Part shown: positions 2,444 to 64,000 of the stretch, in pieces
Numbering within the stretch: the first letter of the stretch is position 1
Layout of the letters: each line of letters starts with the position of its first letter
IMG/VR virus record: IMGVR_UViG_3300041964_000148
Strand: one strand, 5' to 3'
From: a virus
Lineage: Duplodnaviria; Caudoviricetes
Length of the DNA: 64,000 nucleotides
Made by a program: the position numbers and the translations under genes
Notes under the pieces: generated by a model
Databases searched by the model: none
What the model saw: only the letters and a program-made list of their open reading frames with translations
Told to the model about the DNA's origin: nothing

Positions 2444-2473
2444 TGTATATCGCGGGATCTGTCAATCAGTCAT

Positions 2474-3278: not shown

Positions 3279-3283
3279 ATGTT

Positions 3284-3321: not shown

Positions 3322-3494
3322 TTAGATTTTTGGAATATTGAACAAACTGTGTAAACGACAAACTGAACCAGGGTCCAAGTTTATTTTCTCGCTTGTCTGA
3401 CAAATGTCTATTGCAATTTCCTTATCCCCAAATTAGCGCAACTTTTCCTAGATTGCAAGTAAAAATCCTTTTGTTACAATGCCAAAATTAATAA

Positions 3495-4876: not shown

Positions 4877-4940
4877 TCTACCAGGGGGTTTTAATTTTTG
4901 TCAATTGACAAAGACGTTAAAACTATTAAATTTGAGCATT

Positions 4941-6597: not shown

Positions 6598-6725
6598 GAT
6601 TTTGCTTTGCGTGTACATATTACTATGTTATCACATTCAATCCACCGAGATTAATGGTGAAAGATAGCGATCGCGTTCTTTATAACAAAGGTAAAATAAC
6701 ATCAGTAAATACAATCTTAATTTTC

Positions 6726-7247: not shown

Positions 7248-7249
7248 GT

Positions 7250-7651: not shown

Positions 7652-7865
7652 GGGACGAGGGTGGCATCGACCAGTGAAGATGATTTGGTGGATTGCGATC
7701 GCTCTCGTGACGTTGCCGTTAAGATTTATCCCGCTGTTCAAACCGCATAAGATGGTGCGGCAGAGATACAAGGTCTTGACGTTTCGTAGCTTAAAAGAAT
7801 GTAGGCTTTTGAATGGTAAAGAGATCTCGTTGGTATCGAAGATTCGGAACAGACGAAAACCCTAG
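7605..7865 (+). CDS. Hypothetical small membrane protein
   Basis: AAGGA SD before ATG 7605; WWIAIALVTLPL hydrophobic stretch. Confidence 0.45.
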   Translation: MTSKPGRYNLKIYMIEGRGWHRPVKMIWWIAIALVTLPLRFIPLFKPHKMVRQRYKVLTFRSLKECRLLNGKEISLVSKIRNRRKP

Positions 7866-7880
7866 ATTGAGAGCGATCGC

Positions 7881-8357
7881 ATGAACACGAGCAGAGAAGA
7901 AGGTTTTTACTGGGTCAAGAATTCCGCAGGAATTTACCAGATAGCATTTTGGGTCAACTCTAATTGGTTATCTGTTGGGAAGGAGAATGGACGACCAGAA
8001 GGTGATTTTGAGGTAGTGAGCGATCTCCTAGAACCATCCCCATCTAAAGTCGAGAACGACAAACCACCCTCCATCAAAAAAACAAACCTGGAAAGATATC
8101 CAGGATCTATCAAATACAAGACCAATCTCGACTACCCAAAAGAATTCTTCTTGGCTGACTTGCCGCCAAGACGCAACAATCCGAACCCGCTTCCATTGCA
8201 ACCTTTGGAGGTAGACGATTACATCCTATTACCATTCCATCCTTCAGCCGAAATATTCGCGGGGAAACACCTAACTTACAAAGTTATCCATGTGGAAGGG
8301 GATCAGGTTTCTTTAGAAGCGATAGGTTTCCGGGTAACGTTTCTGGAGAATGAATAG
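7881..8357 (+). CDS. Hypothetical phage protein
   Basis: REEGFYWVK N-terminus; in operon. Confidence 0.55.
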   Translation: MNTSREEGFYWVKNSAGIYQIAFWVNSNWLSVGKENGRPEGDFEVVSDLLEPSPSKVENDKPPSIKKTNLERYPGSIKYKTNLDYPKEFFLADLPPRRNNPNPLPLQPLEVDDYILLPFHPSAEIFAGKHLTYKVIHVEGDQVSLEAIGFRVTFLENE

Positions 8358-8603
8358 ATGGATTTTCTAATTTGGGAATGGCGGAACAGCGAACAACCAA
8401 TTGACTACTGTAGGGTCTCTTTTTTGGTTCCACTGATTGGAATCCGAAGAGGTAGAGAGAGGATTAGTGATCAAAAATGGGTTTGGGTTGGATTCATGGG
8501 AAAAACGGAATTCTCTTATGAAGCAGAAAGTGAAGTTGACTGGAGATTTAGTATTCGTGTCTTAGGGTTTGGTTTTTCTATTCACCGCCAGTGGGGCTTC
8601 TAA
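8358..8603 (+). CDS. Hypothetical protein
   Basis: Abuts previous stop. Confidence 0.5.
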   Translation: MDFLIWEWRNSEQPIDYCRVSFLVPLIGIRRGRERISDQKWVWVGFMGKTEFSYEAESEVDWRFSIRVLGFGFSIHRQWGF

Positions 8604-8650
8604 GGCGATCGCTTTATCTAAATATGTCAAGGATTTCAAGAGTTTAATCA

Positions 8651-9124
8651 ATGTCAAAACTTGCCGCTGCAACCGTTCATGAGTTTTCATATTTCTACTT
8701 TGAAGGCGACACGCTAAAAGCTGTAGACAAATGCTCTCAACTGTCAGACGACGAAAATTTGAAATTTTGCAAGCTAAGTGATGCAGTTGGATATGTTCAA
8801 AAACTAGGATGCTGTGGAATGAAACAGCATTCAATACGGAGCGAGTATCATCGCTTGTGTATTGAAGTGCTGCGTTGGGCGGTAAAAAATACGGGTCAAG
8901 TTTTCCCCGTAATTTTTAGGGGCGTTCGCTCTAATCGACCTGAATCAGAACACATGATTCTGTTTGGAACGCGAGACAAGGCGGTTGCTGCTTTCTATGG
9001 TTCAACCATTAAAGAGTATTGCAACGTTAGAGGAATTCTGGTTAAAACATCCCATGTAAAATCAGTCAAGTCTGACGATTGGAGCGAGGCAGACGATGAA
9101 GTTATATTTTTCCCAGATCTATGA
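8651..9124 (+). CDS. Hypothetical protein
   Basis: 157-aa ATG ORF. Confidence 0.55.
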   Translation: MSKLAAATVHEFSYFYFEGDTLKAVDKCSQLSDDENLKFCKLSDAVGYVQKLGCCGMKQHSIRSEYHRLCIEVLRWAVKNTGQVFPVIFRGVRSNRPESEHMILFGTRDKAVAAFYGSTIKEYCNVRGILVKTSHVKSVKSDDWSEADDEVIFFPDL

Positions 9125-9150
9125 AGCGTACAGCCTCTATCCCCGTTAAT

Positions 9151-9378
9151 TTACCACCCCATGAGAGGTTGCTCCCCCTCATGGGTGGGGCGGTTGACCT
9201 CCTTAAAGTCACCTGGGACAGCATCAGTGATATGAAGACCCGATTCAAGGGTGTGTAAGGCATCTTCCAGGGGTTTTCGACTATCGGCATCGGGGCATTG
9301 TTGAATCGCGGCTGTGAGAGCAAGAATAATCGCCCCTAAGTCCTTATCTGACAGTAACCACCATTTTTGTAATGACAT
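9151..9378 (-). CDS. Hypothetical protein
   Basis: AAGG before ATG. Confidence 0.45.
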   Translation of the reverse strand: MSLQKWWLLSDKDLGAIILALTAAIQQCPDADSRKPLEDALHTLESGLHITDAVPGDFKEVNRPTHEGEQPLMGW

Positions 9379-9436
9379 AGCGATCGCCTACCTTCTAACG
9401 TAAAATCCCCTGGGTTTAGATCCAGGGGATTCCGTA

Positions 9437-9988
9437 TTATAGGGCTTTTGGACGGGGGAACTTTGAACCCAAGAAACTCCTCATCATTGCTTGATTGCGT
9501 TTATCCCTGCTTTTGACCGATTCAGGTTCAGAAGGTGTGTCCGCCTCAAGCGCTTCCTCCATCACGGAGAACCGTGATGGAGGAATACTTAAGACAAAAG
9601 GGAAAGGGAGAGGTGACCTAGGAGGACTTAGCCTAAAAGAATGATTAGTATCGGCAATTTTGTTAATTGATCCCCCCTGCTCGGCTAAGGCAGTCAGCGC
9701 CCGCATTATGTTTCCCTGCGCGGCTATGCCAGCCATAGCCCGCCTTAGGGTTCCCTGTTCGACTATTTCAACCAACATTGCCCTTACAAACGATTGTGAT
9801 TCCCCAAGCGCCAAGGAGATTGAGGAAACTGTTTTGTTGAAATCGTAGCTGATTGAAACGGGTTCTGGAACAAACCTGCTAGGTGCGATCGCCCACCAAA
9901 CTCCATTGATCTTCTGCGGTGTATCCCAACCGTTGTTCACACACCAATCAAGGACTAACCTATCTAGTGCGTTTAGTTCTGATTCCAT
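9437..9988 (-). CDS. Hypothetical protein
   Basis: 183-aa ORF followed by a hairpin at 9404-9432. Confidence 0.55.
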   Translation of the reverse strand: MESELNALDRLVLDWCVNNGWDTPQKINGVWWAIAPSRFVPEPVSISYDFNKTVSSISLALGESQSFVRAMLVEIVEQGTLRRAMAGIAAQGNIMRALTALAEQGGSINKIADTNHSFRLSPPRSPLPFPFVLSIPPSRFSVMEEALEADTPSEPESVKSRDKRNQAMMRSFLGSKFPRPKAL

Positions 9989-31400: not shown

Positions 31401-32654
31401 TTACGGCTCAGGCAGTTTCTGACGCTTCTTTTCCCACGCTTGCTGAAAGCCTCCACAATGTTTAGTTGTGGGTTTTTCAGTAGAGGCTTGAGATCCACGT
31501 TTGTCGAGCGTCGTTCCAACGCCCGTTGCCCATATTAGGCAAACTTTAGCTGAGGCTACATCTCTGTCTTCGACACAGCCGCAAGGACATTGATGTAGTC
31601 GTTCAGCCAGTGTTTTAGGTTTGACTTGCCAGCAGTCAGGACATCGTTGAGAAGGCTTGAGTGTCTTAGTTGGAGCTTTCAGAAATACCCCATCAGCTTC
31701 ACCTAATTTGTACTCCAGCATTCCCCCCAAAATTCCCCAACCTACATCCAAAATGGAGCGGTTTAGCCCAGACTTCTGTCGCTTCCGCTTTCCCTTCTTG
31801 GCTTTTTTAGTCATCCCCTTGATGTTGAGTTTCTCTGTCACGACCATGCTGTTACTGCTTACTATCTGTGTCGTGACCTGATGCGCCCAGTCTTGACGTT
31901 GATTAGTCGCTTTGCGCTGCAACTTATTGACTTTAGACTGAGCTTTTTTCCAGCGTTTTGATCCCTTAATCTTTTTCTTGAAATTGGGGCTACGTTTCCG
32001 ACGCTTCTGTTTAGATGCCGCTCTGATTTTCTCTTGAGTTGCACCCAAGAAGCGAGGATTTTCTATTTTGGTTCCATCGCTACAAGCGACGGCTGTTAGA
32101 GTGCCAAAATCAATGCCAATTGCACCCGTTCCGGTTTCTCGGACTGGCTCACATTTGACGGTGATTGAGGCATACCATTTGCCTTGTCGGTACACGATGG
32201 TGCAAGTTGTTGGGATTCCCCAAGTTCTTGCCTTTCCTCTCATCTGAATTTGCCCTAAGTTAGACAGTTCCAGATAGCCGTTGTCACCCGTGGTGTGTGC
32301 TTTCCAACCAGGTGCCGCTGGGTAAGTCCATCCACTATAACGACGAATTGACTTGAATCGGGGGTATCCTCCCAAGCCTTTGAAGAACCGCTCGTAAGCC
32401 ATGTCAACCCGTTTAAGGGTAGCCTGTAGGGCTTGGCTTCCTAGCTCTTTGTACTCTGTCCAGACCGTCTTGAACTCAGGTAATGAGTTTTGTTGGTCGT
32501 AGTAGGTAACTGATTTCCCAAAACGTTGATATTGCGTCTTCTTGTTGTACAGCGCTGCATTATAAAGGTCTTTATGTAAACGCCTCCAATAGCTCAACTT
32601 TTGGGCTTGAGCAATGGAAGGATAAAGACGAAAGGTGCAACGACGGGTTATCAT
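31401..32654 (-). CDS. tnpB: RNA-guided endonuclease TnpB
   Basis: FRLYP HTH, RuvC D (GIDFG), E (VTEKL), D (DRDVAS), CPDC..CPCG. Confidence 0.92.
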   Translation of the reverse strand: MITRRCTFRLYPSIAQAQKLSYWRRLHKDLYNAALYNKKTQYQRFGKSVTYYDQQNSLPEFKTVWTEYKELGSQALQATLKRVDMAYERFFKGLGGYPRFKSIRRYSGWTYPAAPGWKAHTTGDNGYLELSNLGQIQMRGKARTWGIPTTCTIVYRQGKWYASITVKCEPVRETGTGAIGIDFGTLTAVACSDGTKIENPRFLGATQEKIRAASKQKRRKRSPNFKKKIKGSKRWKKAQSKVNKLQRKATNQRQDWAHQVTTQIVSSNSMVVTEKLNIKGMTKKAKKGKRKRQKSGLNRSILDVGWGILGGMLEYKLGEADGVFLKAPTKTLKPSQRCPDCWQVKPKTLAERLHQCPCGCVEDRDVASAKVCLIWATGVGTTLDKRGSQASTEKPTTKHCGGFQQAWEKKRQKLPEP

Positions 32655-32854: not shown

Positions 32855-33982
32855 TCAGGGGGATTTCCCGCTCACACTTGTTAAGCGTTCTTTGAGTACA
32901 GCAAATGCGATCGCTCCCACCTGAGGGACAATGGCATTTCCCAATACAGATACCTGGCTGTTCATGAGACCTCGTGCCTCCATATACTCTTTTAGAGTTT
33001 GGTCAAACTCTTGCTTGAGTTCTTGATATTCGCTTGCGCCCTCTCCTTCAAGGCACTCAGCTTGTCGATCAAATTTTTTGTGGTAGGCTCGCTTGAGTTG
33101 ATCATACTCTCTTCGATCTGCTGGTGATAGGGCTTTAATTTCTCTTGGAGAAAGTTCAACCGAGCCACGAGGCTCCCTTGTAAAACTGGGCATTGTGGAT
33201 GCGGTGAGCCACCCATCAAGGTCTGGGTGTCGCAAGAGATATCCGCCCAAGTTGGCGGGTAGCCCATCATCGCTGCCACAAAGTAAGGGTTGAGGGTAGT
33301 GTCCTTTGTCGTTAAATTCAGTAGGGAGTACTTTCTCCTGTTTTTTGCCTCCGCCACTGAGCCGCCCCGTGAGAGACCGGCTGTTGGCGTAGGCAATAAT
33401 CCATATTCGCGCTCGAAGGTGGGTTCCTCCCACTCCAATGCGGAATCTTTTTTCTTTACCTCGGCTAGAGCCTGTTTCCAAATGGGCGCATGGTACAGTT
33501 CCCCATTCGACATCGAACCCCAGCTCGTCCAGGTCTCGCAAAATTCCCTTGAAAAATTCTCCAGATTCGGAAGATAGCAATCCAGGGACGTTTTCCAGCA
33601 CCGCCCATCTGGGCTGAACTTCGCGAAGGATTCGCCGAATCTCAGGCCATAAGTCCCGCTCGTCTTCCGAAGCCTTTTTCTTGCCGAGGACTGCGTGGGG
33701 TTGGCAAGGGAAGCCGCCGGAGATTCCGTCGATCCTAGGGACTCCCAATTGTCGAAGAGATTCAACTGTAACATCGCATACATTTTTAATTAAAGGAATG
33801 CCAGGGAACCTAAGTGACAACAATTCTTGGCAGTAATCATCATTATCACATACAGCAACTGTCTCAAGTCGAAGATCATTGTCATCCCCTTCTCTACTAA
33901 TGGATTCTGCCAGGAGGAATCCTCCTCCTCCAGAACACAAATCCAACACGTAGTGGGTGTTCTCGTCCTGTAATAGCTTCAT
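32855..33982 (-). CDS. C5-cytosine DNA methyltransferase, alpha chain (motifs I-VIII, X)
   Basis: DLCSGGGG, GGFPCQ, ENV, R.RIWI, GNAIVP; no motif IX in this frame. Confidence 0.85.
   Translation of the reverse strand: MKLLQDENTHYVLDLCSGGGGFLLAESISREGDDNDLRLETVAVCDNDDYCQELLSLRFPGIPLIKNVCDVTVESLRQLGVPRIDGISGGFPCQPHAVLGKKKASEDERDLWPEIRRILREVQPRWAVLENVPGLLSSESGEFFKGILRDLDELGFDVEWGTVPCAHLETGSSRGKEKRFRIGVGGTHLRARIWIIAYANSRSLTGRLSGGGKKQEKVLPTEFNDKGHYPQPLLCGSDDGLPANLGGYLLRHPDLDGWLTASTMPSFTREPRGSVELSPREIKALSPADRREYDQLKRAYHKKFDRQAECLEGEGASEYQELKQEFDQTLKEYMEARGLMNSQVSVLGNAIVPQVGAIAFAVLKERLTSVSGKSP
32992..33774 (-). CDS. Nested alternate-frame beta chain (TRD plus motif IX)
   Basis: LLPTPTA...LNPYFVAAMMGYPPTW; conserved with 34083-35003. 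Confidence 0.72.
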   Translation of the reverse strand: MLQLNLFDNWESLGSTESPAASLANPTQSSARKRLRKTSGTYGLRFGESFAKFSPDGRCWKTSLDCYLPNLENFSREFCETWTSWGSMSNGELYHAPIWKQALAEVKKKDSALEWEEPTFEREYGLLPTPTAGLSRGGSVAEAKNRRKYSLLNLTTKDTTLNPYFVAAMMGYPPTWADISCDTQTLMGGSPHPQCPVLQGSLVARLNFLQEKLKPYHQQIEESMINSSEPTTKNLIDKLSALKERAQANIKNSSKSLTKL

Positions 33983-35208
33983 TTTTCCTCCTTAAGTGCT
34001 GACAAACGTTCCTTAAGTACAGCAAATGCGATCGCTCCGACATGAGGGACAATCGCGTTCCCGAATATCGATAGCTGGGTATTTATTGCCTTTTTAAGTT
34101 CTTTGTACTCGTTAAGCTTGAGCAAGAATTGCTCCTGGAATTGGCAATATTGGTTTGCGCTCTCTCCTTCAAGGCACTCAGCTTGTCGATCAAATTCCTT
34201 ATCGAAGGCTCGTTTGAGTTTCTGATATTCGCTTCGATCTTCTGGTGAAAGGGATCTAATTTCTCCTGGAGTGAGTTCAATTGAACAACGCACCTGCCGA
34301 AAGAAGCAGGGGATTGTGGATGCGGTGAGCCACCCATCAAGGTCTGGGTGTCGCAAGAGATATCCGCCCAGGTTGGGGGGTAGCCCATCATCACCGCCGA
34401 AAGGTAAGGATTGAGGCATCTGCTCTCTTGATGTGGGGTCATCAGCCGGACAAAGCGACTCAACCCCACTGACCCATTTACTCCTTGGTTGCTGATCTTC
34501 CTTGGTGTTCCATTTCTTGTGAAATAGATCTTCGTATTCTCGTTGAAGACCGCCGCCATTGTGGCATCGGATGCCGTTGGGGTAGGGATCAGGGTTTTGA
34601 TGATTTGTCGCAGCCCCTTCCCCTTGAAGGTGGCGGTAAGCGACAATCCAGACTCGCTCTCGGAGATGAACTCCTCCAGCTCCAATAAACTCGTTAGGGC
34701 TTGCTTCCATATAGGCGCAGGAAATAACTCCCCACTCAACATCAAACCCCAGTTGGGCAAGATCTCCAAATATTCCTCGTAGGAACCGTCCAGCGTCCGT
34801 TCTAAATAGCCCTGGGACATTTTCAAAAACCGCCCAGATGGGCTGAACTTCGCGAAGGATTCGCCGAATCTCCGGCCACAAGTCCCGTTCGTCTTTAGAG
34901 CCTTTTTTCTTGCCGGCGACGCTATGGGGCTGGCAGGGGAATCCGCCGCAAATTCCGTCGATTTTGGGGATTCCCAATTGTCGAAGAGATTTAGTTGTGA
35001 CATCGGATATATCTGGGATGACAGGGATGTGGGGAAATCTTAGCCTTAATACATCCTGACAATTTTCGTTGTTATCGCACACAACTACCGTCTCCAGCCG
35101 CAGGGCGTTTTTAGCCTGCTGGGAGATGGCTTCCGCTAGGATAAATCCTCCTCCTCCAGAGCATAAATCCATTACGTAGTGGATGTTTTCGTCATGTGAC
35201 AGGCTCAC
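33979..35208 (-). CDS. C5-cytosine DNA methyltransferase, alpha chain (paralog)
   Basis: DLCSGGGG, GGFPCQ, ENV, RERVWI, GNAIVP. Confidence 0.85.
   Translation of the reverse strand: MSLSHDENIHYVMDLCSGGGGFILAEAISQQAKNALRLETVVVCDNNENCQDVLRLRFPHIPVIPDISDVTTKSLRQLGIPKIDGICGGFPCQPHSVAGKKKGSKDERDLWPEIRRILREVQPIWAVFENVPGLFRTDAGRFLRGIFGDLAQLGFDVEWGVISCAYMEASPNEFIGAGGVHLRERVWIVAYRHLQGEGAATNHQNPDPYPNGIRCHNGGGLQREYEDLFHKKWNTKEDQQPRSKWVSGVESLCPADDPTSREQMPQSLPFGGDDGLPPNLGGYLLRHPDLDGWLTASTIPCFFRQVRCSIELTPGEIRSLSPEDRSEYQKLKRAFDKEFDRQAECLEGESANQYCQFQEQFLLKLNEYKELKKAINTQLSIFGNAIVPHVGAIAFAVLKERLSALKEEK
34083..35003 (-). CDS. Nested alternate-frame beta chain (TRD plus motif IX)
   Basis: 306-aa open frame wholly inside alpha; PTPTASD...LNPYLSAVMMGYPPTW. 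Confidence 0.75.
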   Translation of the reverse strand: MSQLNLFDNWESPKSTEFAADSPASPIASPARKKALKTNGTCGRRFGESFAKFSPSGRFLKMSQGYLERTLDGSYEEYLEILPNWGLMLSGELFPAPIWKQALTSLLELEEFISESESGLSLTATFKGKGLRQIIKTLIPTPTASDATMAAVFNENTKIYFTRNGTPRKISNQGVNGSVGLSRFVRLMTPHQESRCLNPYLSAVMMGYPPTWADISCDTQTLMGGSPHPQSPASFGRCVVQLNSLQEKLDPFHQKIEANIRNSNEPSIRNLIDKLSALKERAQTNIANSRSNSCSSLTSTKNLKRQ

Positions 35209-36753: not shown

Positions 36754-38352
36754 TTAGAACTCGTAGATTGCTATTATTCTTCCCTGCTCGTCATAGTCGG
36801 CACAGTACTCCTCGTTTTCCTCAATAAACTTCTGAGCTTGGGTTTGGACAGATATATCAACTCGAAACACCGAGTCTTCCAGCGCTGCTTTTAATCGGTC
36901 GAGAACTGCCTCAGGTGAAGATGGTGGCGGAGCCTTGGGCAAAGTTCGCTTCCGAGCTAGCTCTGCTATCTGCTGGAATATTAGCTTTGAACCCGCAGCG
37001 GCGTGTTGTTGATCTTCCTCTGTTATTTGCTTTGGTTTCCACTCGTTATGATTTTCTACGCCTTGTGGCAGGACAGGGGTTTTTGTAATGTCTCGTCCTG
37101 ACAGTGTTTCGGATTTGGATACCCCTGTTTGAGGCATTGGTGATCGCACAGCTTCTAGATTGGTCTCTAGATACTCCTTCTCATCGTCAGGTACAACTCC
37201 ACCACTGGCTATACGCTGTGCAGCACTTTCATAGTGGTGGTTGAAGGTTAGAGAGTAGGTTCTCCACCTCAAAGAAATTTTGTCTGGTTCATTAAAGAAA
37301 TTACTAATGACAGCTTCTTCGGCATCATAAACGGACGAGTATGTCCACTTCTTCATCCACTCCTGAGCTTTCCATCTGACAAACTCACCCTTAAACTCGT
37401 TATTTCGATTTAGCCAGGGTGTCTCACCTTCACAGTACACAAGGTTAGGATGCACCTCGCGCCTTCGATCCTGCCTCCACTTTGTAGATTCAGAGACTTT
37501 TTTATCTGTTATCACAGCAGCGGCGGAATTTTTATCTTCACCAGGAGTTTCTATTGCTTGCAAAGGAATGACCTCAATTTGTGGATCTTTTGACAGGGTG
37601 TTGCTTGGAGTTTCTTCTTCCGGTTCCGGAATCTCAAATCCAAATTGCTTTTCTTTCGCAGCCCTAGGGTTATTGCCGATAGATCTTGGATTGGTTCCAA
37701 CAGCCCTAGGGTTATTACCGATAGCTCTTAAATTAGTTCCATCTTCTCTTTTTCCTGATTTACTTCCCCCTTCTTTTTTTTCCCCGCTTGCGGGGTTAGG
37801 GGGGTTGATCTGATGAATAGATCTAATTTCTGATCTATTCATAGATGATGGTCCACCCAGCGGATGCTCCATCATCTCCTGGGTGGATGGTCGATCATCC
37901 TCTGAGTGGATACTCTCATTTTCAGGATCATCCATTTTTGGCACTATCTGATTTCTCGACGTTACAGCCGTTTTAGAGGCATTCATGATTAACTCACCGA
38001 TTGTCTCTGGATTGGGTCTGTAAAACTTAGTTTGATTCCATTGACCCGATAAAAACTGACCCGATATCAAGTAACCCTTATCTTCAATATTTAAAAGTAG
38101 CCGTTGAAGTTTGCGGGGGTTCCCCAAGCACGGATACATCTCACTCCACTCTTGGTAAGTGGCAGCAGTCCACCACTCGTCATCGTGGTAGTACTTTTCC
38201 CTGCCAGTGATCGCATTGTTTTGACACCAATCTTCTATGATTTCAAGTAGCAAAGCCTCAAGTACTCCAATTTGGTTCGCCATTCCCCACACCAGCTTGG
38301 TAAAAGGAAGACGATGGAGGGACTTGTAGGCAGCTACAGCAGCCGTAGTCAT
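36754..38352 (-). CDS. Putative phage replication initiator
   Basis: N-terminal wHTH-like region (W...TY.EW....P.....R.L..L...GYL...TKFYR) followed by a low-complexity, repeat-bearing linker. Confidence 0.55.
   Translation of the reverse strand: MTTAAVAAYKSLHRLPFTKLVWGMANQIGVLEALLLEIIEDWCQNNAITGREKYYHDDEWWTAATYQEWSEMYPCLGNPRKLQRLLLNIEDKGYLISGQFLSGQWNQTKFYRPNPETIGELIMNASKTAVTSRNQIVPKMDDPENESIHSEDDRPSTQEMMEHPLGGPSSMNRSEIRSIHQINPPNPASGEKKEGGSKSGKREDGTNLRAIGNNPRAVGTNPRSIGNNPRAAKEKQFGFEIPEPEEETPSNTLSKDPQIEVIPLQAIETPGEDKNSAAAVITDKKVSESTKWRQDRRREVHPNLVYCEGETPWLNRNNEFKGEFVRWKAQEWMKKWTYSSVYDAEEAVISNFFNEPDKISLRWRTYSLTFNHHYESAAQRIASGGVVPDDEKEYLETNLEAVRSPMPQTGVSKSETLSGRDITKTPVLPQGVENHNEWKPKQITEEDQQHAAAGSKLIFQQIAELARKRTLPKAPPPSSPEAVLDRLKAALEDSVFRVDISVQTQAQKFIEENEEYCADYDEQGRIIAIYEF
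37659..37742. repeat. Tandem 21-bp units (ABAB, 2 x 42 bp) encoding G(T/N)N(P/L)R repeats
   Basis: CAGCCCTAGGGTTATT(G/A)CCGA / TAG(A/C)TCTT..ATT.GTTCCA. Confidence 0.8.
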
Positions 38353-40391: not shown

Positions 40392-41237
40392 ATGCAAACC
40401 AAAAAGAATTCCTCAGCGGCAGACCGCAAGGATGTTGCCTTGCTCTTTACGTCGGATTTAATCGAAGCCCTTCTCAAAGGAACGAAAACCCAGACCCGCA
40501 GAATAATCAATCCTCAGCCTGTCCTAGAAGACGGGATTTGGATGTGGAAGCGAAAAGGTGAAACCCCCATTCCGTTAGTGAATCAATCCTTGTCCATGCT
40601 GGCAGAAAGTCGGTATCAGGTAGGTGATCGCCTCTACGCTAAGGAGTCGATGTATCTCGACAAGGACGATCTCGGCGAGGGCGACTGTTGGTATTACGAT
40701 TTAGATAAGAAGAAAGTTATGGTTTCGCGGGAAGACGAAGGAGCCATGCTTGCCTGGGCGCACCATAAGCAGACGACTACTCAAAGCGCTCTATTCATGC
40801 CGCGATGGGCAGCCCGAACTTGGAGGGAGATTGCAGAAGTTAGCGTTCAGCGTATAGGTGATATCAGCGAGGAAGATGCGATCGCCGAAGGGATTGTCCC
40901 ACTGATATACAGGGCTTCAGCCGAAGGACACTATGTTCGCTACTATCATTACGAGTATCAGACGTACCATACAACCTACGACGGGGACGGGGCGCGGCAA
41001 AGCTTCCGAACACTCTGGAACCAAATCAACGGAAAATGGACAGCCATTCGGAAGAACATGGACGGCGGCGAAACCAAAAAAAAGGAGTTGTCGCATTATA
41101 TTTCGTACCCTTGGAATGAGGAGGATATTAAGGACAAACCCGATGTTCGTAACAAAAATATCCCTTTTCTCGCTTGCCCGAACCCTTGGGTCTGGGCGAT
41201 AAAATTCACCACGGTTCTCCGTGACGAAGGAAAATAA
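40392..41237 (+). CDS. ASCH/PUA-like phage protein
   Basis: L.G.KTQTRR, GDRLY.KE, FMPRWAAR, DA.AEG, NPWVW. Confidence 0.7.
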   Translation: MQTKKNSSAADRKDVALLFTSDLIEALLKGTKTQTRRIINPQPVLEDGIWMWKRKGETPIPLVNQSLSMLAESRYQVGDRLYAKESMYLDKDDLGEGDCWYYDLDKKKVMVSREDEGAMLAWAHHKQTTTQSALFMPRWAARTWREIAEVSVQRIGDISEEDAIAEGIVPLIYRASAEGHYVRYYHYEYQTYHTTYDGDGARQSFRTLWNQINGKWTAIRKNMDGGETKKKELSHYISYPWNEEDIKDKPDVRNKNIPFLACPNPWVWAIKFTTVLRDEGK

Positions 41238-42622
41238 TGATTTTCGCATCTCTTTTCTCTGGGTTTGGATTGGCAGATATCGGAGCCAAATTGGCAGGTT
41301 GCGAATTGGCTTGGGGGATCGAATTGGATGAGGCGATCGCAGAAATTTCTCGCCAACTAGGACACCGAGTCCTGTGCCAGTCCGTAACCGAAACTGATTT
41401 TAGTAAGCTGGAAAAGCCCGACATTCTTTGGGTTTCCCCACCGTGCCCAAATTTTTCTGTGGCAAAGCAGGGCGCTAAAGAAACTGCCCTCGACATTGAG
41501 CTAGCTAATGCTGTAGTTAATGCGATTTCAATCCTAGAGCCGAAATATTTCATCTTGGAAAATGTCGAGGCGTACAAGCGAAGCAAATCCTTGAGAATCA
41601 TTGAGGACAAGCTTTACAGCCTTGGCTACTGGATTGATCGGCAGGTATTTAATTCTGCTGATTTTGGGGTTCCTCAAACTCGCAGACGTTTAATTGTCCG
41701 TGCGGTTAGGCATGGCTTCGTTCCGCAAATGCCCCAAGCGCAAAGCTGGTTAGGCTGGTATCAAGCTATAGAAGACCTTTTGCCAGATCTCCCAGAAACA
41801 ACGCTTGCAAAATGGCAAAGGGATAGGCTGGGGGCTGCTTTTGAAAAAGGACAGGATATTGATGGGGACTTGTGGATCGGTGGCTCAAACTGCTCGGAAA
41901 GTTTCTTGCAGTTTGCCATAGATAATCGCCCAACTATCCCTGGGATAAGGAAAAGGGGGCAGCCGTTGCCTACAATTCCTGCCGATGTCGCCACCAATAG
42001 TAAGGCTAGAGCAATTCTAGTTCCTGGAGGAAATGCAAGTAGTTTTCCTATCCGTGCAGACCACCAACCGGCTGCAACCGTCGGAGATACACATCGGACG
42101 GGGAATAGACCAAAAGCTGTCCTTGTCTGTGGTATTGGAAACAGAGGAGAATCTTTGTCAACCCGACAAGACGAGGAGCCAGCTCTCACTGTTACAGGTG
42201 GGCATCAAGCTCTAAGAGCTATGCTCATCCAATCCAAAAACCCCAATCAGGAGTATGGGAACGGAATAAGGGAAGGTGGAGAACCTGCCCAGACTGTAAT
42301 CACAGATGGCAAACCTAGTCACCAATTAAAGGCGGTACTGATCGATGTCAGCAATATAATTCGTGATTGTACTGTCCGACAGATGGATGAGCCATCGTTT
42401 ACCATTACAGCCGAAAAGATGCGTCGCCCAATTTCAACCCCAAAGGCGATTCTGGAATCGGCAAGAATTGTGCAAATGAGTTCTCGCTGTCTGGCACGGT
42501 TTCAAACCTTGCCGGATTGGTACGAACTTCCCGTTAAAAATGCTTTAGCTTGCAAGGGGATTGGGAATGGAGTCCCTTGTAATATGTCCGAACAAATCGT
42601 GCGATCGCTAATAGGAAGTTAA
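41237..42622 (+). CDS. C5-cytosine DNA methyltransferase with repeated TRD-like units
   Basis: SLFSGFG, SPPCPNFS, ENV, QTRRR, ARFQTLPD, IGNGVP. Confidence 0.88.
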   Translation: MIFASLFSGFGLADIGAKLAGCELAWGIELDEAIAEISRQLGHRVLCQSVTETDFSKLEKPDILWVSPPCPNFSVAKQGAKETALDIELANAVVNAISILEPKYFILENVEAYKRSKSLRIIEDKLYSLGYWIDRQVFNSADFGVPQTRRRLIVRAVRHGFVPQMPQAQSWLGWYQAIEDLLPDLPETTLAKWQRDRLGAAFEKGQDIDGDLWIGGSNCSESFLQFAIDNRPTIPGIRKRGQPLPTIPADVATNSKARAILVPGGNASSFPIRADHQPAATVGDTHRTGNRPKAVLVCGIGNRGESLSTRQDEEPALTVTGGHQALRAMLIQSKNPNQEYGNGIREGGEPAQTVITDGKPSHQLKAVLIDVSNIIRDCTVRQMDEPSFTITAEKMRRPISTPKAILESARIVQMSSRCLARFQTLPDWYELPVKNALACKGIGNGVPCNMSEQIVRSLIGS

Positions 42623-52398: not shown

Positions 52399-53858
52399 CG
52401 TACTCCCTCGGCTGAAGCACGAGGGATTCTCAAAGGATGTTACGAGGCAGGCTGAAGCCGTGCCTCTCCACCCTTTTTCCTGCTTCGCAGACTCTTAACT
52501 AGACCGTTGCCAGTCCCCGTCAGACCGTCTCCACAGGCAATTTCTTCCACGCTGCGTCCCAGCGCAGAGATCCCTCTATTGCGGATCACTTGTGCTGCTG
52601 CCACATCCCGATGGGTTGTGTAGCCGCATTCAGGACAAGCATGAAGCCTGTCGCTTAGTTCTTTCTTTCCGGTATGCGTATCGCATTGAGGACACACTTG
52701 CGAGGTGTAATCCTTATTCACCTTATCGAAGTAAACACCCCGTTTCCAGCACACCCATTGCAGAATTGAAACGAACTGTCCAAATCCAGCATCAAGGGTA
52801 TGTTTACCAAGCATCCCTTTTGCCCAAGTGCGGAAGTTGATATCCTCAACAAACAGCATTCCAGCTTCGTCACAAAGTTTGTGAGCCAACTTGAAATGCC
52901 AGTCTTTACGAGTGTCCGCAATGCGCTGGTGCAATCGTGCAATTTTCCGAGTGAGCCTGTGCCGATTATTTGAGCCTTTCTGCTTGTGCTTCAGCCTGCG
53001 TTGCAGCAATGTCAGCTTGCGTTGCAGTTCTTGAAGGAAACGAGGGCGTTCAATCAGCGCTCCATCAGACGTTGCAGCAAATTTGTCTAACCCTAAATCA
53101 ATCCCCCTCGGATGCCCACTAGGGACAGGATCAGGTATATTTACATCACATTCAAGCGTGAACATCAGGAAGTACCCCGAAGCCTTACGAACCACCCGAA
53201 CCTGCTTCACGATAAAGCCGTCCGGGATGTCGCGAGACTTGACGTATTCCACCCACCCCAACTGTGGCAATTTGATTTGACTCCCCTTCAAGAATTGAGA
53301 CTTACCCAACTGCGGATACACAAATGAGCGCATCCGATATCGGTTCTTGAATCGGGGAAACCCCAGACCTTTGCGCTTCATGTCGATAAAAGCGGTTTCC
53401 AGCTTTCTCAGAACTTGCTGCAACACCTGAGCATTCACAGTTTTAAGTTCTCTTAATTGCTCTTTTGCCAGTGTTAGAGACTTGGCTTGAGCGTTGTAGT
53501 TAGGGTAAGGTTCATCAGCCGAGATGATGTACTCAGAAATGATGGAGCAAGCATTTACCGGACATTTACGAGAATTAATCCAGTCTTTGCGTTCACGTAA
53601 AGCAAAGTTCCAGACTTTTCGACACACCATTAAAGTGTGTTCGATTAGCTGGACTTGCTCATCTGTCGGCATTGCTTTGTACTCGTAAGTTAGGGTTAAC
53701 ACTGCTTTCACCTCCTTCTACAAATCATACCCTAGCTTTGTAGAAGTTGAGACAAAGCGTAAATACTCTTACGATTAAACCCGGACAAACAGAGGGCTAA
53801 AGCCCTGAGTTAGCTTTCATCCCCCGGTTGAAACGCGGGGGTTCTCAGCATCTTTTCG
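52395..53858 (-). mobile_element. IS200/IS605-family (tnpB-only) element
   Basis: Left end after TTTAT (53859-53863) with hairpin 53821-53841; right-end hairpin 52404-52426 ending TCAA. Confidence 0.85.
52440..53711 (-). CDS. tnpB: RNA-guided endonuclease TnpB
   Basis: GIDLG, VEDI, TSQVCPQC...CPEC, HRDVAAA. Confidence 0.92.
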   Translation of the reverse strand: MKAVLTLTYEYKAMPTDEQVQLIEHTLMVCRKVWNFALRERKDWINSRKCPVNACSIISEYIISADEPYPNYNAQAKSLTLAKEQLRELKTVNAQVLQQVLRKLETAFIDMKRKGLGFPRFKNRYRMRSFVYPQLGKSQFLKGSQIKLPQLGWVEYVKSRDIPDGFIVKQVRVVRKASGYFLMFTLECDVNIPDPVPSGHPRGIDLGLDKFAATSDGALIERPRFLQELQRKLTLLQRRLKHKQKGSNNRHRLTRKIARLHQRIADTRKDWHFKLAHKLCDEAGMLFVEDINFRTWAKGMLGKHTLDAGFGQFVSILQWVCWKRGVYFDKVNKDYTSQVCPQCDTHTGKKELSDRLHACPECGYTTHRDVAAAQVIRNRGISALGRSVEEIACGDGLTGTGNGLVKSLRSRKKGGEARLQPAS

Positions 53859-60020: not shown

Positions 60021-60464
60021 GTGCCTCGTTATTCCAATACACTCGAAGTCCGCTTTAATGTAGTCGAGGAGCATCGCTGGGAAGTTTACCAGGAGATGCC
60101 CAGCGTTGCTCAGTTGGGTGCCAGTGAGGCTCTCAAGCGCGACGGCTGGGTCTTTTTTGTCCGAGACAGCGATCGCATCGTTCCGTATTATTTCGATGCC
60201 AGTAGCCTAACTATTTACCCATTTACAGGCAATGTTGTCGTTGCCCCTCGGAAACTTAGGACACGCATCGGCAATGGGACAGATCGAGAATTTATCGTTA
60301 ACCACGGGTTCAACTCTTTGGATGTTGATGCGTCGGCATGGGAGTTTGTCGCAACTCGTAGGTACAGAATTGAATGTAATATCTTTAAGGTAGATGAAAA
60401 TAGTATAGGTTTTGAGTTTTCCGAGCCGCCGACACAGGATGCTATCGAAGTTTTGATCGGTTAG
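60021..60464 (+). CDS. Putative tail-fibre-associated protein
   Basis: IG.G....F.V.H.....DV...F..PP domain; GTG 60021. Confidence 0.5.
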   Translation: MPRYSNTLEVRFNVVEEHRWEVYQEMPSVAQLGASEALKRDGWVFFVRDSDRIVPYYFDASSLTIYPFTGNVVVAPRKLRTRIGNGTDREFIVNHGFNSLDVDASAWEFVATRRYRIECNIFKVDENSIGFEFSEPPTQDAIEVLIG

Positions 60465-60478
60465 ATTAAGGCACAAAA

Positions 60479-60513
60479 AAAGCCCCCACCAGGATTTCCT
60501 GGTGGGGCTTTTT
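60479..60513. terminator. Bidirectional terminator
   Basis: AAAGCCCCCACCAGG-attt-CCTGGTGGGGCTTTT. Confidence 0.75.
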
Positions 60514-60548
60514 AATATTTAGTGCCTGTTATTTGGCTTCAAAAAAGT

Positions 60549-61532
60549 TTAAGCACTGGCTACAGTTTTCTTAATTACTGTAAGAACTTCTTCGGGGGAG
60601 AGTAGAGATGCATATCCCTGTTCACTTCCTCCTACTTCAGAGTTCCCACCCCAACGCTTCTCAACCTCTTCCTCTCCCCGCTTTTGGGATTCAAGGAAAT
60701 TGAGTTCGTCAAAGACAGCTTGAGAATTCCAAGTCGCCTCTGGCGAATAGCGGCCAATAGTGTACTTGAGATGTGGCTCAAATTTGCCATTCGCCGTAAA
60801 TTCGGGGTTGTATGCGATCGCATACTTGCCGAAGCGGTAGGCATAACCTGTCGCCCCAATATGCGCTGATTCTACGACAGCGATGTCGCCATCAACGGCA
60901 ATGAGTTTGGATGCCTTGAATGCATCCATTTTTGTTTTGATGCCCTTTTCGCGGCTACCCTCTGGTTCAACACCAGCGATAAGCCACTTCAGGACATTTA
61001 CAACCTTTTGCTTAACTCCGACAGAATCGACTGCTCGTTCACGCACATAGGAGTGCATGGCAATTAGCGGATCTTTCTGGAGTTTTTCTGCATACTCCTC
61101 TGAAGACATTTCTGTCTGTGATTCTCGTACCCAGCCCCCCTTGTCGGATTTGTCCACAAGGGCAATTCGTTGAACGAAATCTCCATCAGGCTGGACACCC
61201 AGCTCATCAAAGCTTAACTGTCCATGCTTTTTAAGGAGGACTGCGGCGGCGCAGTACGCATCCAGATCTTCTTTGCCGATAAATACGGCACTGTCATGAG
61301 GTACTCGCCAGAAATGTCCGTCTGTGAACATTTCGATGGCAAAGGCCGCCGCGCTATATGGCTTATTACTTCCATCATGCTGAGGATCGATATTGAAATC
61401 CAAGGCATCAACTGCCCAAGGATAGGCTTCGGCTCCAAAGCATAAGCAGTCATATTCCTTCTTGATGCGCTCAATGAGAGCGACATCTTCGGCTTGATTG
61501 CGGGGGTTTAGGACGTAGAATGTAATGCTCAT
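60549..61532 (-). CDS. Hypothetical protein, possibly DHH/DHHA1-like phosphoesterase
   Basis: ATG 61532 after the AAGCAAAACCC leader; DLD and WGG...GGS motifs; function weakly supported. Confidence 0.55.
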   Translation of the reverse strand: MSITFYVLNPRNQAEDVALIERIKKEYDCLCFGAEAYPWAVDALDFNIDPQHDGSNKPYSAAAFAIEMFTDGHFWRVPHDSAVFIGKEDLDAYCAAAVLLKKHGQLSFDELGVQPDGDFVQRIALVDKSDKGGWVRESQTEMSSEEYAEKLQKDPLIAMHSYVRERAVDSVGVKQKVVNVLKWLIAGVEPEGSREKGIKTKMDAFKASKLIAVDGDIAVVESAHIGATGYAYRFGKYAIAYNPEFTANGKFEPHLKYTIGRYSPEATWNSQAVFDELNFLESQKRGEEEVEKRWGGNSEVGGSEQGYASLLSPEEVLTVIKKTVASA

Positions 61533-61572
61533 GGGTTTTGCTTGATCACGGAGAACCGTGACGATAGTTTTT

Positions 61573-61625
61573 GCTCCCTCACTATTTTTCACCCAGGCTT
61601 GGGACTGGCGTCGGCTAGTTTAAGC
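61573..61625 (-). ncRNA. Twister ribozyme (type P1)
   Basis: GCU-UAA-ACUA-GC-CGACG-CCAG-UCCCAAGC-CUGG-GUGAAAAA-UAGU-GAGGG-AGC: P1, P2, P4 and both pseudoknots. Confidence 0.85.
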
Positions 61626-61665
61626 GGCTCCCCCAAGGGGAGCCTAACTTTCATTAAACTGAGAT

Positions 61666-62154
61666 TTACTTTGATAACTTATTTACCCATTGAAGCTGTG
61701 GGTTTTGCTCTCTAAAGGCAGAATCCCATTTATATCGCCCCATTTCTGGATGGTATGGAAAGTCATTTTCCCACCACACAGAGATACATTTTTTTAGCGA
61801 TTCTAAGGTTATCATTCCTTCTACTGATGGAACACTATACCCAGAAGCCGCAGATGACTGTATTTGGGAACAAGGTATTGCTTTGAAATTAATTCCCCGC
61901 TCTAAACATCGCGAGATAATTTCCCCTAAAGCAAATATGGAATCTCTTCCAAAATCTAAAGATAGGCAATTTTGAGATTCTTGATATCGAACCTGAGAAG
62001 TGTAACTAAGAAGACTGCTATCTGGTAACTGTGTCGCAGTTCCATGATAATCGTCGTCTTCGTCTATTTTGGGAGCAAACGAGGGAAATACCTGAAATAC
62101 TGCTTCTTTCGCTAGCTCTGAATTTTCTAAGAATAAAAATCTGGCTGAAAACAT
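61666..62154 (-). CDS. Hypothetical protein
   Basis: GCAAAACC leader; flanked by twisters. Confidence 0.65.
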   Translation of the reverse strand: MFSARFLFLENSELAKEAVFQVFPSFAPKIDEDDDYHGTATQLPDSSLLSYTSQVRYQESQNCLSLDFGRDSIFALGEIISRCLERGINFKAIPCSQIQSSAASGYSVPSVEGMITLESLKKCISVWWENDFPYHPEMGRYKWDSAFREQNPQLQWVNKLSK

Positions 62155-62174
62155 GGTTTTGCATTATAAATTTT

Positions 62175-62226
62175 GCTCCCTCTGCATTTTTATCCAGGCT
62201 GGGGACTGGCATTGGCTGCATTAAGC
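62175..62226 (-). ncRNA. Twister ribozyme (type P1)
   Basis: GCU-UAA-UGCA-GC-CAAUG-CCAG-UCCCCAGC-CUGG-AUAAAAA-UGCA-GAGGG-AGC; P2 covaries with the other copies. Confidence 0.82.
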
Positions 62227-62251
62227 GGCTCCCAAGGGAGAGCCTTTACAT

Positions 62252-63277
62252 TTATATGAGCGCTTCGTGGGCGATCGCATTAATGTAAGCGATCGCATCC
62301 TCGTAGGTTGGGCGAGATGGGTACTCGTGAACCCCTATTTTTAGCTCAAACAGGGAAACTGGTTCCCCGAACGGGTCATTTGGGTTCTGCACCCTCGGAC
62401 TTTTGCTTGTCGAGTGGCAGTATCGATCAAATAGGATGTATTTTTCTAACGTCCCTCCTTGGAGGAAGCGCTCAACGTCTTCCTCAAATGTTCGGTCTTT
62501 TGGAATAGAGTATTCTACTCCTTGAGTCCAAAAAGACTTGGACTGAACAAGGGGCATTGCTAACTTTACATGGCGTTTGCCAAGTTCAGTTGCCGCTAAA
62601 TCCCAGAAAACTGCCAAGGCTTGTAGTAACTCTTCCGAGAGATCTTCTCGGTCTAGATTTAAACTGGACAACGGATGCCCAATAACTTCATGATTGCCGT
62701 ATCCTGTCCAGCGACAGTAATCCAACAAAAATTCCTCAGGGTTTTCGGGGACAACCCATCCCCATTTAATCGCTAGAAGAAGACCTTCTGCGATCGCCCA
62801 TCCTACCGAATTGTTGGGGCAGTGAAGCAATCGCTGCGTCAGTCGCCCCTCTTGGGCGGCTTCAAGACTGTCATTGTTCTGGTAGCTTGTCCAGCACCAG
62901 GCCCAAGCTACAAGAGAACTTCGTAAATGTGCATGGGCGAAGTTGGGTGTATAGTTTAGGGCAATTACATCGAATATTGTTGTCCAGTAGCCCCACTCTG
63001 CTATTTCCGCCAACTTCCCCCATCCCATTTGGTTATGGGGATCGGGCAGATCGTATATCGGCTTCTCGAATATCGCGTATTCGCTTATTCCAGTTGCAAT
63101 TCGTGCAATTTCTCGCACCTTTTCCGGATGTTCGTCGTCGCAGCAGGCAAGCAGATATCTTGCCGCGAATGACAAGTCACTTCCGTCTTCCAACGCTGCT
63201 ATCTTCTCGATCTCTTCAATATGGCGATTGTTGATAATTGAGGCGATCATTCGTTCGATTTTTTCTTCAGATTGCAT
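62252..63277 (-). CDS. Hypothetical protein
   Basis: AAGCAAAACC leader; flanked by twisters. Confidence 0.7.
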   Translation of the reverse strand: MQSEEKIERMIASIINNRHIEEIEKIAALEDGSDLSFAARYLLACCDDEHPEKVREIARIATGISEYAIFEKPIYDLPDPHNQMGWGKLAEIAEWGYWTTIFDVIALNYTPNFAHAHLRSSLVAWAWCWTSYQNNDSLEAAQEGRLTQRLLHCPNNSVGWAIAEGLLLAIKWGWVVPENPEEFLLDYCRWTGYGNHEVIGHPLSSLNLDREDLSEELLQALAVFWDLAATELGKRHVKLAMPLVQSKSFWTQGVEYSIPKDRTFEEDVERFLQGGTLEKYILFDRYCHSTSKSPRVQNPNDPFGEPVSLFELKIGVHEYPSRPTYEDAIAYINAIAHEALI

Positions 63278-63376
63278 GGTTTTGCTTGATCACGGAGAAC
63301 CGTGACGATAGTTTTTGCTCCCTCACTATTTTTCACCCAGGCTTGGGACTGGCGTCGGCTAGTTTAAGCGGCTCCC
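63278..63376. repeat. 99-bp identical direct repeat of 61534-61632
   Basis: Covers leader, palindrome, twister and one hairpin arm. Confidence 0.9.
63317..63369 (-). ncRNA. Twister ribozyme (type P1)
   Basis: Identical to 61573-61625. Confidence 0.85.
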
Positions 63377-63394
63377 AAGAGGGAGCCTATGTTG

Positions 63395-63976
63395 TTAGTT
63401 GTAAATAGAAGAGATATCCAAAATCTCATCTATCTTTTCCTGGTCTAATCCGATAATTTCGCGTTGTTTATAATAGCGGAAATTATCATTTTCAGACATG
63501 AATTGGATGCGTTCAGCAATAGGGAGGCGAATGATTCGCTCATACGTTACTGGTAGTAGTATGTAGAAATCGTCTGAACTGAACTCAGGGTCATACCCTA
63601 AATCATCTTCGTCTGAAGAGATCCAACACGCTAGCCCAGCTTCCATTTGAAGTTTTTTTTCTACCTCGAAAACTACTTCAGATATTCCAGCCTTTCCAGA
63701 TGAAAAACAATGCCAGTCATAAGGCGCGTTATCTGATTTGTATAGGTTCGCGAACCTGTTGTCTGGAATGTCTTCGTTGCAGTGAAAAGATGCTGCTATG
63801 CCTTGGCTTCCCATCATTCCATTCCAGTGGAGCTGAATGTTTTGAACCACAATTTTTCGATTGAACAAATCCAGCATGAGCTGAATTTCTTGGTCGGTTA
63901 CGAAATGGCGCTTTATTTGACGCATTTGGTGATGTGCTTCGTATTTGTACTCGTACATTAGAATTTTCCCTTTCAT
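63395..63976 (-). CDS. Hypothetical protein
   Basis: AGCAAAACC leader; followed by hairpin plus twister. Confidence 0.65.
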   Translation of the reverse strand: MKGKILMYEYKYEAHHQMRQIKRHFVTDQEIQLMLDLFNRKIVVQNIQLHWNGMMGSQGIAASFHCNEDIPDNRFANLYKSDNAPYDWHCFSSGKAGISEVVFEVEKKLQMEAGLACWISSDEDDLGYDPEFSSDDFYILLPVTYERIIRLPIAERIQFMSENDNFRYYKQREIIGLDQEKIDEILDISSIYN

Positions 63977-64000
63977 GGTTTTGCTGATTTTCTCAATTGG

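Follow-up and report, generated by a model that had tools for sequence, protein, structure and literature searches.

Multiple hammerhead ribozymes flanking single genes of a prophage operon were described in 2011 by Perreault et al., who proposed that they process the transcript into gene-length mRNAs, and arrays of three hammerheads cleave both in vitro and in E. coli (PMC3088659). The same processing proposal was made for twister ribozymes in a 2019 review that regards their purpose as still undefined; what ribozymes of the twister, hammerhead and hepatitis delta virus (HDV)-like types do for bacteria and phages is an open question (PMC6765202). The type-P1 twister goes back to Roth et al. 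2014 (cited in PMC5408937 and PMC6765202). Here we describe a series of gene junctions at the end of the 64,000-nucleotide (nt) viral record IMGVR_UViG_3300041964_000148 (the window, meaning the whole stretch analyzed), each of which carries a hairpin, a ribozyme motif and a leader. A sequence-only reading of this DNA had proposed that twister ribozymes divide a polycistronic transcript into single-gene mRNAs. That reading overstated the novelty of ribozyme processing, for which the hammerheads of 2011 (PMC3088659) and the proposal for twisters (PMC6765202) are precedents.

Type-P1 twister motifs in the window

The minus strand of positions 60400-64000 carries four co-oriented open reading frames (ORFs), g7 to g10, separated by three spacers that share one layout. 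From 5' to 3', each spacer consists of a stop codon, a GC hairpin, a motif of 52-53 nt that directly adjoins the hairpin, and GCAAAACC(C)ATG. When the ORFs and the sequence were checked, all elements lay on the minus strand as the sequence-only reading had described them, with the three hairpins at exactly its positions (Table 1). Across the 64 kb, the core pattern GCCNGTCCCNAGCCNGG is present three times and no more, compared with an expectation of 0.15 when two mismatches are allowed. Our models of the two ribozyme classes discussed here (R1 for twister, R2 for HDV-like) find no additional copies anywhere else in the window. The junction hairpins were considered as terminators and rejected, as no U tract follows them.

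An Rfam search at gathering thresholds gave no match in the window. With an E-value threshold, the twister-P1 model (RF03160, gathering cut-off 67.2 bits) provides the top hits and is covered in full at all three motifs: 62174-62227 (48.4 bits, E 5.9e-9), 63316-63370 and 61572-61626 (44.1 bits and E 1e-7 each). The Rfam check suggested by the sequence-only reading supports a type-P1 twister by E-value at every motif, although the scores do not reach the gathering cut-off. The low scores are explained by the absence of the optional P3 stem and by a P1 stem of only 3 base pairs (bp). All conserved core nucleotides are present in the window copies. The stems follow the type-P1 order P1, P2, P4 with a U-A cleavage dinucleotide in the P1-P2 junction, and in all three copies the cuts predicted from the sequence fall on the U-A step of the UAA junction, precisely where they had been placed before.

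Including copies from related operons (loci L012, L015 and L018, described below), 10 of 10 twisters from four related loci parse into P1, UAA, P2, P4 and the two pseudoknots T1 and T2. Four complementary versions of the P2 stem and three of P4 are seen; the compensatory change in P2 already noted within the window (ACUA/UAGU versus UGCA/UGCA) is real. The T1 pseudoknot, formed in the window by CCC of L4 and GGG of the GAGGG strand, also exists in four complementary versions among the ten copies (CCC/GGG, CCU/AGG, CUC/GAG and UCC/GGA). The T2 pseudoknot pairs GC after P2 with GC of L4, and is either GC/GC or AC/GU apart from one mismatched sister copy.

Covariation was assessed with eight distinct rows, one of them from a viral contig, in a model-based alignment; MAFFT misaligned the twister 3' halves, and the model-based alignment and a coordinate-based parse were used instead. 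In this alignment pairing is seen in 97.7% of cells, with P2 and P4 paired throughout (100%) and P1 in 92%. Changes on both sides, spanning P1, P2, P4 and both pseudoknots, affect 10 of 17 pairs. The observed pairing was reached in 0 of 500 shuffles, and slid controls paired at 27-46%. Based on the E-values (6e-9 to 1e-7), the full core and covariation that includes both pseudoknots, the three window spacers are genuine type-P1 twister ribozymes, as the sequence-only reading had identified them, and are predicted to self-cleave.

The GGGAGC at the 3' end of the twister, which is made up of the T1 and P1 strands, recurs in the 3' arm of the upstream hairpin (GGGAGCC). The repeat is seen in all three spacers (e.g. 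63370-63387 versus 63317-63325), so that the hairpin 5' arm could in principle pair with the ribozyme 3' end.

The array beyond the window and a second ribozyme class

The window proteins are also encoded on several metagenome contigs. One locus, L007, from a 237-kb metagenome contig, matches the window with 100% identity along the shared 11,749 nt and extends past its edge (window position = 73278 - L007 position). The sequence-only reading had asked whether the array continues beyond 64 kb, and in L007 five more junction ribozymes lie upstream: a twister with a P3 stem (7583-7642, 55.9 bits), a divergent twister (8940-8995, 33.8 bits), and three copies of a second, HDV-like motif (6801-6855, 8524-8580 and 9231-9287). 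The first ten minus-strand bases of the window are the last ten of the third HDV-like copy. The most divergent twisters, L007:8940-8995 and L018:1554-1611, are both missed by model R1 with its filters off, and are identified by Rfam (33.8 and 44.2 bits) and the parse.

The operon comprises ten genes in ~6.85 kb. Of its eight junction ribozymes, five are twisters and the other three are HDV-like and lack the P4 stem. The window holds the last four genes and three of the five twisters; all three complete HDV-like copies lie beyond its edge. Each of the eight junctions consists of a stop codon, hairpin, cut site, ribozyme, leader and ATG, and the ribozymes are all on the sense strand, so that several same-sense ribozymes flank single genes in one putative transcription unit. 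Two of the ten genes, g1 and g2, overlap by ATGA. On the coding strand, a strong promoter-like site that matches the consensus (TTGACG-18-TACAAT, extended TG) is found at L007:5915-5944, and a strong bidirectional terminator-like site, likewise a consensus match, at L007 12771-12794. A consensus scan of L007 found no comparable site between the two. In 8 of 8 cases the predicted 3' end (35 nt up to the cut) folds as a hairpin, with energies between -11.4 and -17.7 kcal/mol, and has a tail of 2-4 nt. Nested folding of the predicted downstream products gave z scores near 0, a method that is uninformative for pseudoknotted ribozymes.

The HDV-like motif is a nested double pseudoknot of P1, P1.1, P2 and P3. 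The P1 stem is GCACCC/GGGUGY, with a first pair that is either G.U or G-C; P2 is CUCAA/UUGAG, P3 is GCC/GGC, L3 is UCCUCGC and P1.1 is GG. An unpaired linker of ~8 nt takes the place where P4 would be. Pairing is found in 124 of 124 cells across eight copies from four related loci. Additionally, 7 of 16 pairs show compensatory changes; none of 500 shuffles reaches this, and slid partners pair at 28-40%. A cytosine 4 nt 5' of the P2 3' strand is invariant in 8 of 8 copies. The catalytic cytosine of these ribozymes is the first position of J4/2 (PMC10879173), which the invariant residue matches and is therefore predicted to be. Rfam matches to this motif are weak (drz-agam-1, 17.0 bits with a cut-off of 37; HDV-F-prausnitzii, 16.9 bits with a cut-off of 44) and the gathering score of no HDV-type family is reached; Rfam has no model of the P4-less form. 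Judging from this comparison of copies, the second motif is a minimal (P4-less) HDV-like ribozyme with a clear fold.

The features of the window are collected in Table 1. The g10 start is assigned to the ATG after GCAAAACCC, not to a GTG farther upstream. Outside the window, L007 has a six-codon mini-ORF (ATG ACA AGG AAA AAC AAA TGA; ~8596-8616) that starts at the standard leader and whose stop overlaps the ATG of g5 (92 aa), which suggests translational coupling.

Table 1. Features at the 3' end of the operon, in window coordinates; hairpin energies refer to the 35 nt up to each predicted cut.
Feature	Position	Strand	Evidence or remark
HDV-like ribozyme end, last 10 nt (J4/2 and P2 3' strand), truncated by window edge	63991..64000	-	Whole element L007:9231-9287; model R2 79 bits
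Gene g7, 193 amino acids (aa), no known family; leader AGCAAAACC before g7	63395..63976	-	
GC hairpin, 7 bp, UCUU loop; would close upstream mRNA with a 4-nt tail after the cut	63370..63387	-	-15.7 kcal/mol, z -4.97
Type-P1 twister without P3; predicted cut 63366/63365 (between U and A)	63317..63369	-	RF03160 44.1 bits, E 1e-7; parse; covariation
Second small hairpin, UCACGG UUCU CCGUGA, between ribozyme and leader	63290..63305	-	Covaries in L015 and L018
Constant leader AGCAAAACC immediately 5' of ATG	63278..63286	-	Promoter-proximal gene has the same leader
Gene g8, 341 aa, core gene of operon family	62252..63277	-	
GC hairpin at predicted upstream mRNA end	62227..62244	-	-11.4 kcal/mol
Type-P1 twister; predicted cut 62223/62222	62175..62226	-	RF03160 48.4 bits, E 5.9e-9; parse; covariation
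Gene g9, 162 aa; present in this operon only, of four compared	61666..62154	-	
GC hairpin at predicted upstream mRNA end	61626..61644	-	-17.7 kcal/mol
Type-P1 twister, identical to the 63317-63369 copy; predicted cut 61622/61621	61573..61625	-	RF03160 44.1 bits; direct repeat
Second small hairpin 5' of leader	61546..61561	-	Folding
Gene g10, 327 aa, last gene and core gene of operon family	60549..61532	-	
Putative intrinsic terminator, 10-bp GC stem and U tract, operon end	60475..60507	-	L007 12771-12794 (= window 60484-60507), U tract to ~60475

Related operons and the layout on viral contigs

Related operons are present on the contigs of g8 homologues (L012, L015 and L018). The four operons share a core consisting of the regulator gene g0, the 123-aa coiled-coil gene g2, g8 and g10, and differ in the genes in between. 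Junctions in the sister operons carry both ribozyme classes, as in L007. However, the class at a given junction is not fixed. The junction after g2 has an HDV-like ribozyme in L007 and L012 and a twister in L015 and L018, whereas the junction before g10 has a twister in L007, L015 and L018 and an HDV-like ribozyme in L012. Such swaps at orthologous junctions argue that selection acts on the presence of a cut there and not on a property of one class, and from this comparison cleavage itself appears to be the selected function. The loci of distant g8 relatives (L020-L023) yielded no Rfam ribozyme at E up to 1; ribozyme punctuation is thus not a deep trait of the g8 family.

The differing genes of otherwise related operons raise the question of whether the junction modules act mainly as DNA, as portable recombination points for the swapping, duplication and loss of cassettes, with RNA cleavage being secondary. 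The first and third spacers of the window form a 106-nt direct repeat (97% identity) that brackets g8 and g9, near-identical ribozymes precede different genes in different loci, and the common core with differing intervening genes also fits such a role. However, the RNA pairing, including the pseudoknots, is kept by covariation, which a DNA recombination site would not need. Equivalent junctions hold ribozymes of two unrelated classes, these always lie in sense orientation, and the operon has no integrase or recombinase. We therefore consider a mainly DNA-level function unlikely, and it is in any case compatible with RNA processing, which it need not replace. Integron-type attC sites were rejected given the absence of an integrase and the covariation at the RNA level.

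The layout is also common on viral contigs outside this operon family. The HDV-like core pattern matched 93 IMG/VR contig stretches and more than 120 metagenome stretches; 80 of the viral loci, with 90 pattern matches, were analyzed. All 90 have a perfect 6-bp P1, and 5 of the 90 are directly 3' of a tRNA. Among the remaining 85 sites, 58 have a stable hairpin that ends at most 6 nt from the cut, compared with 246 of 2000 random positions (12.3%) in the same loci. An ATG-started ORF begins at most 130 nt downstream in 72 of the 85, a count without a matched control on phage contigs, where ORFs are dense. P3-less type-P1 twisters in 18 viral stretches similarly show an upstream hairpin in 16 and a downstream ORF in 17. 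The strong enrichment of the upstream hairpin with both classes and across many viral contigs suggests a design that includes protection of the released 3' end. The sequence-only reading had considered the hairpin to be protective, and this idea consequently has comparative support.

Two further arrays illustrate the layout. In L082 (IMGVR_UViG_3300043442_000931; 1700-9600, minus strand) approximately eleven minimal HDV-like ribozymes and one twister occupy consecutive junctions of small genes, each with a hairpin, a ribozyme and an A/C-rich leader. The genes include ParB and a DUF932 protein; a link of DUF932 to leading-region anti-defence arrays found no support in a literature search. A 107-kb viral contig carries five minimal HDV-like ribozymes in a row, with small genes between them (L078:7700-9800, minus strand, also seen as L138:10350-12400, minus strand). 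Leaders in this array are of the Shine-Dalgarno type (GGGAGG), indicating that the layout is not confined to a single group of hosts. No tRNA directly adjoins the ribozymes in L082, L078 or L138. A tRNA search found none in the window or the array loci, including L082, except one that is ~2.8 kb from the L078 array.

Proposed transcript processing, host context and known systems

The arrangement of the junctions points to the following model. Transcription from the promoter-like site at L007:5915-5944 would produce a single long transcript ending at the terminator, and the eight ribozymes would cut it at the gene junctions, probably co-transcriptionally. Twisters cut at a U-A step and HDV-like ribozymes immediately 5' of P1, and both leave a 2',3'-cyclic phosphate and a 5'-hydroxyl (5'-OH) (PMC5408937, PMC8782182, PMC10879173). 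Since both classes cut near their own 5' ends, the hairpin would stay with the upstream product and the ribozyme with the downstream product. The former would have at its 3' end a stable GC hairpin with a tail of 2-4 nt that carries a 2',3'-cyclic phosphate; the latter would begin with a 5'-OH and the folded ribozyme body, followed by the constant, unstructured A-rich leader and the ATG. The outcome would be single-gene mRNAs, with the exception of one two-gene message from the overlapping g1 and g2. We consider such processing of the operon transcript, taken as a whole, highly probable.

The ends created by cleavage may also affect the lifetime of the messages. A 3' hairpin with a very short tail would hinder 3' exonucleases, and a 5'-OH together with a folded ribozyme would hinder 5'-end-dependent decay by RNases that depend on a 5'-monophosphate. 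We regard this specific stabilizing role of the hairpin and ribozyme ends as evenly balanced between true and false. The leader, in turn, would offer a uniform translation start and insulate the start regions from neighbouring sequence.

It is also conceivable that translation, not stability, is the main role, with the cut freeing a standard 5' end and leader for independent translation as in engineered insulators. All junctions, and the promoter-proximal gene too, have the constant leader AGCAAAACC-ATG, and several junctions have a small hairpin between ribozyme and leader. Engineered twister-based polycistronic expression works in this way (PMC9872166), and in some RNA viruses translation is enabled by ribozyme cleavage (PMC13725137). 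However, a primary role in translation leaves the strongly enriched hairpin on the upstream side unexplained, and we consider it less likely than not. It overlaps with the processing model and does not exclude it.

Several observations weigh against the processing model or parts of it. Every Rfam score, for twister and HDV-like motifs alike, lies under the curated gathering cut-off. Of the sister copies, L015:2416-2475 carries two mismatches, A.C in T2 and C.A in P1, and L015:5285-5336 carries one, C.A in P1. In twisters P1 is dispensable for cleavage and natural examples tolerate helix imperfections, but they do not tolerate defects in the pseudoknots or the catalytic residues (PMC5408937, PMC11662667). 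The ribozymes of L007 and L015 are 93-98% identical, compared with 61-73% at the nucleotide level for the shared genes; this speaks for selection on the ribozymes, but the high identity between loci could also reflect recent exchange instead of purifying selection. The promoter and terminator calls, and hence the putative transcription unit, are at the level of consensus matches. Finally, the argument for stabilization draws on what is generally known of bacterial RNases and not on host data.

The proteins of the operon match no family from Pfam, PADLOC, PHROGs or NCBIfam. The g8 and g10 families are tiny, with 5-6 close homologues each among 5.8 billion clustered proteins (six for g8); g8 has ~16 relatives among 1.8 billion representative proteins. 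The sole match in a genome collection is a 29%-identical fragment in a Gallionella metagenome-assembled genome. The AlphaFold model of g8 is all-alpha and confident (predicted local distance difference test, pLDDT, 86.6; predicted template modelling score, pTM, 0.82). It has no Foldseek match in PDB (best E 0.18) and none in the ESM Atlas (template modelling score, TM, <=0.34), and VIA-align gave only helical-repeat rows (Z <=5.0). The g10 model is too poor for use (pLDDT 56), and its Atlas look-alikes are unnamed, mostly viral proteins.

The window shows no DNA similarity to deposited phage and plasmid records. It contains 69 occurrences of the octamer GCGATCGC, which we take to be the HIP1 signature of cyanobacteria, compared with 0.55 expected; the count places the replicon in a cyanobacterium. 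Other genes in the window include a replication-initiator-like gene (36754-38352), several DNA methyltransferases (32855-35208 and 41237-42622 among them) and a ResIII helicase, alongside numerous genes with no assigned family. Two transposase genes, TnpB/IS605 OrfB and a second one, are found near the operon at 52440-53711 and 31401-32654, both on the minus strand, and no phage structural gene was seen in the window. From this gene content we read the window as a mobile-element-like mosaic part of a cyanobacterial plasmid or chromosome, not as a demonstrated phage.

A gene for a WYL/WCX regulator (L007:5130-5840) lies directly upstream of the operon, outside the window. The promoter regions of all four related operons contain an inverted repeat, GGAAG-N5-6-CTTCC (GGAAGTGGGGTCTTCCA; L007:~5865-5900), which is conserved, occurs twice in L012 and looks like a candidate operator for this regulator. 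Divergent from the regulator is a gene for a HAD-IIIA PNK3P-like phosphatase (PF08645, E 8e-12; L007:4522-5049, minus strand), and the phosphatase gene is kept beside the regulator in two loci, L007 and L015:2-262 / L017:29-334. Models for histidinol-phosphatase and GmhB match as well, and no single subfamily can be assigned. The 2',3'-cyclic or 3'-phosphate ends that the ribozymes leave could be substrates of such an enzyme.

Ends with a 5'-OH and a 2',3'-cyclic phosphate, as produced by both ribozyme classes, are substrates of RtcB-type ligases. Released cistrons might thus be joined into circular mRNAs or other RNAs, and the phosphatase beside the regulator in two loci hints at RNA-end chemistry, subject to its ambiguous subfamily. 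However, the locus has no ligase gene, no complementarity brings together the ends of a released segment, and the terminal hairpin and folded ribozyme would keep the ends apart. In addition, hammerhead arrays gave no circular or spliced products when these were sought (Perreault et al., PMC3088659). We consider ligation of the cistrons highly improbable.

Returning to processing into separate mRNAs, it is tempting to extend the model beyond this operon. Modules of hairpin, ribozyme and leader may be a general, class-independent mRNA punctuation for accessory-gene arrays carried by phages, plasmids and other mobile DNA. The slot would accept any small ribozyme with a cut site close to its 5' end, the upstream hairpin would be selected as a 3' cap, and modules would travel with their genes as cassettes. 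In the cyanobacterial family the system would perhaps be tied to the WYL-type regulator and to the PNK3P-like 3'-phosphatase acting on cyclic-phosphate ends. This generalization is tentative, and we hold it to be doubtful in its full extent.

The operon is an unusually clean natural test case, with eight ribozymes of two unrelated classes at interchangeable positions, a fixed upstream hairpin and a fixed downstream leader, single predicted promoter-like and terminator-like sites, and sister operons for comparison. If the processing model is true, fragments of 680, 1143, 601 and ~1145 nt are expected; upstream messages would need the hairpin for stability, and downstream translation would need cleavage. 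The pre-cut hairpin could also be used as a search criterion for further ribozyme classes. In the literature we found no description of twister and minimal HDV-like ribozymes mixed or swapped within one operon family, of a regular pre-cut hairpin enriched across many viral contigs, or of a cyanobacterial setting with a WYL-type regulator.

The individual ribozymes closely resemble described forms. The twisters share with RF03160, including P3-less forms such as that of Oryza sativa, the order P1, U-A cut, P2 and P4, the L4 sequence UCCC(A/C)AGC, the GAGGG strand and both pseudoknots. However, the operon copies have a P1 of 3 bp, the window copies lack P3, and a GC hairpin always abuts the 5' side of P1. 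Similarly, the second motif has the same P4-less nested double pseudoknot as minimal HDV-like ribozymes, to which the theta ribozymes of gut phages belong (Riccitelli 2014; Kienbeck 2024, PMC10879173), and shares with the known forms an HDV-like L3, a C at the catalytic position of J4/2 and an occurrence in phage or mobile DNA. Theta ribozymes cut within a few nt of a tRNA 3' end. In contrast, no tRNA adjoins the HDV-like ribozymes of the operon; a hairpin after a stop codon precedes the cut, and a gene lies downstream.

At the level of the operon, the closest parallel is provided by the hammerhead arrays (PMC3088659), which likewise place same-sense ribozymes between the genes of one transcript in mobile DNA and for which the same role was proposed. 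The operon differs in that its ribozymes are twisters and HDV-like ribozymes that occur together in one operon and replace each other at orthologous junctions, in that there are eight in a row compared with up to three, and in the regular succession of hairpin, ribozyme and leader at every junction. Engineered insulators such as pRAP (PMC9872166) also use twisters between cistrons to obtain separate mRNAs with defined 5' ends. However, pRAP is man-made, whereas the operon is natural and has an extra hairpin for the 3' end of the upstream product. The ribozyme-punctuated arrangement has been known since 2011, and the operon described here is a clean, testable example of it.

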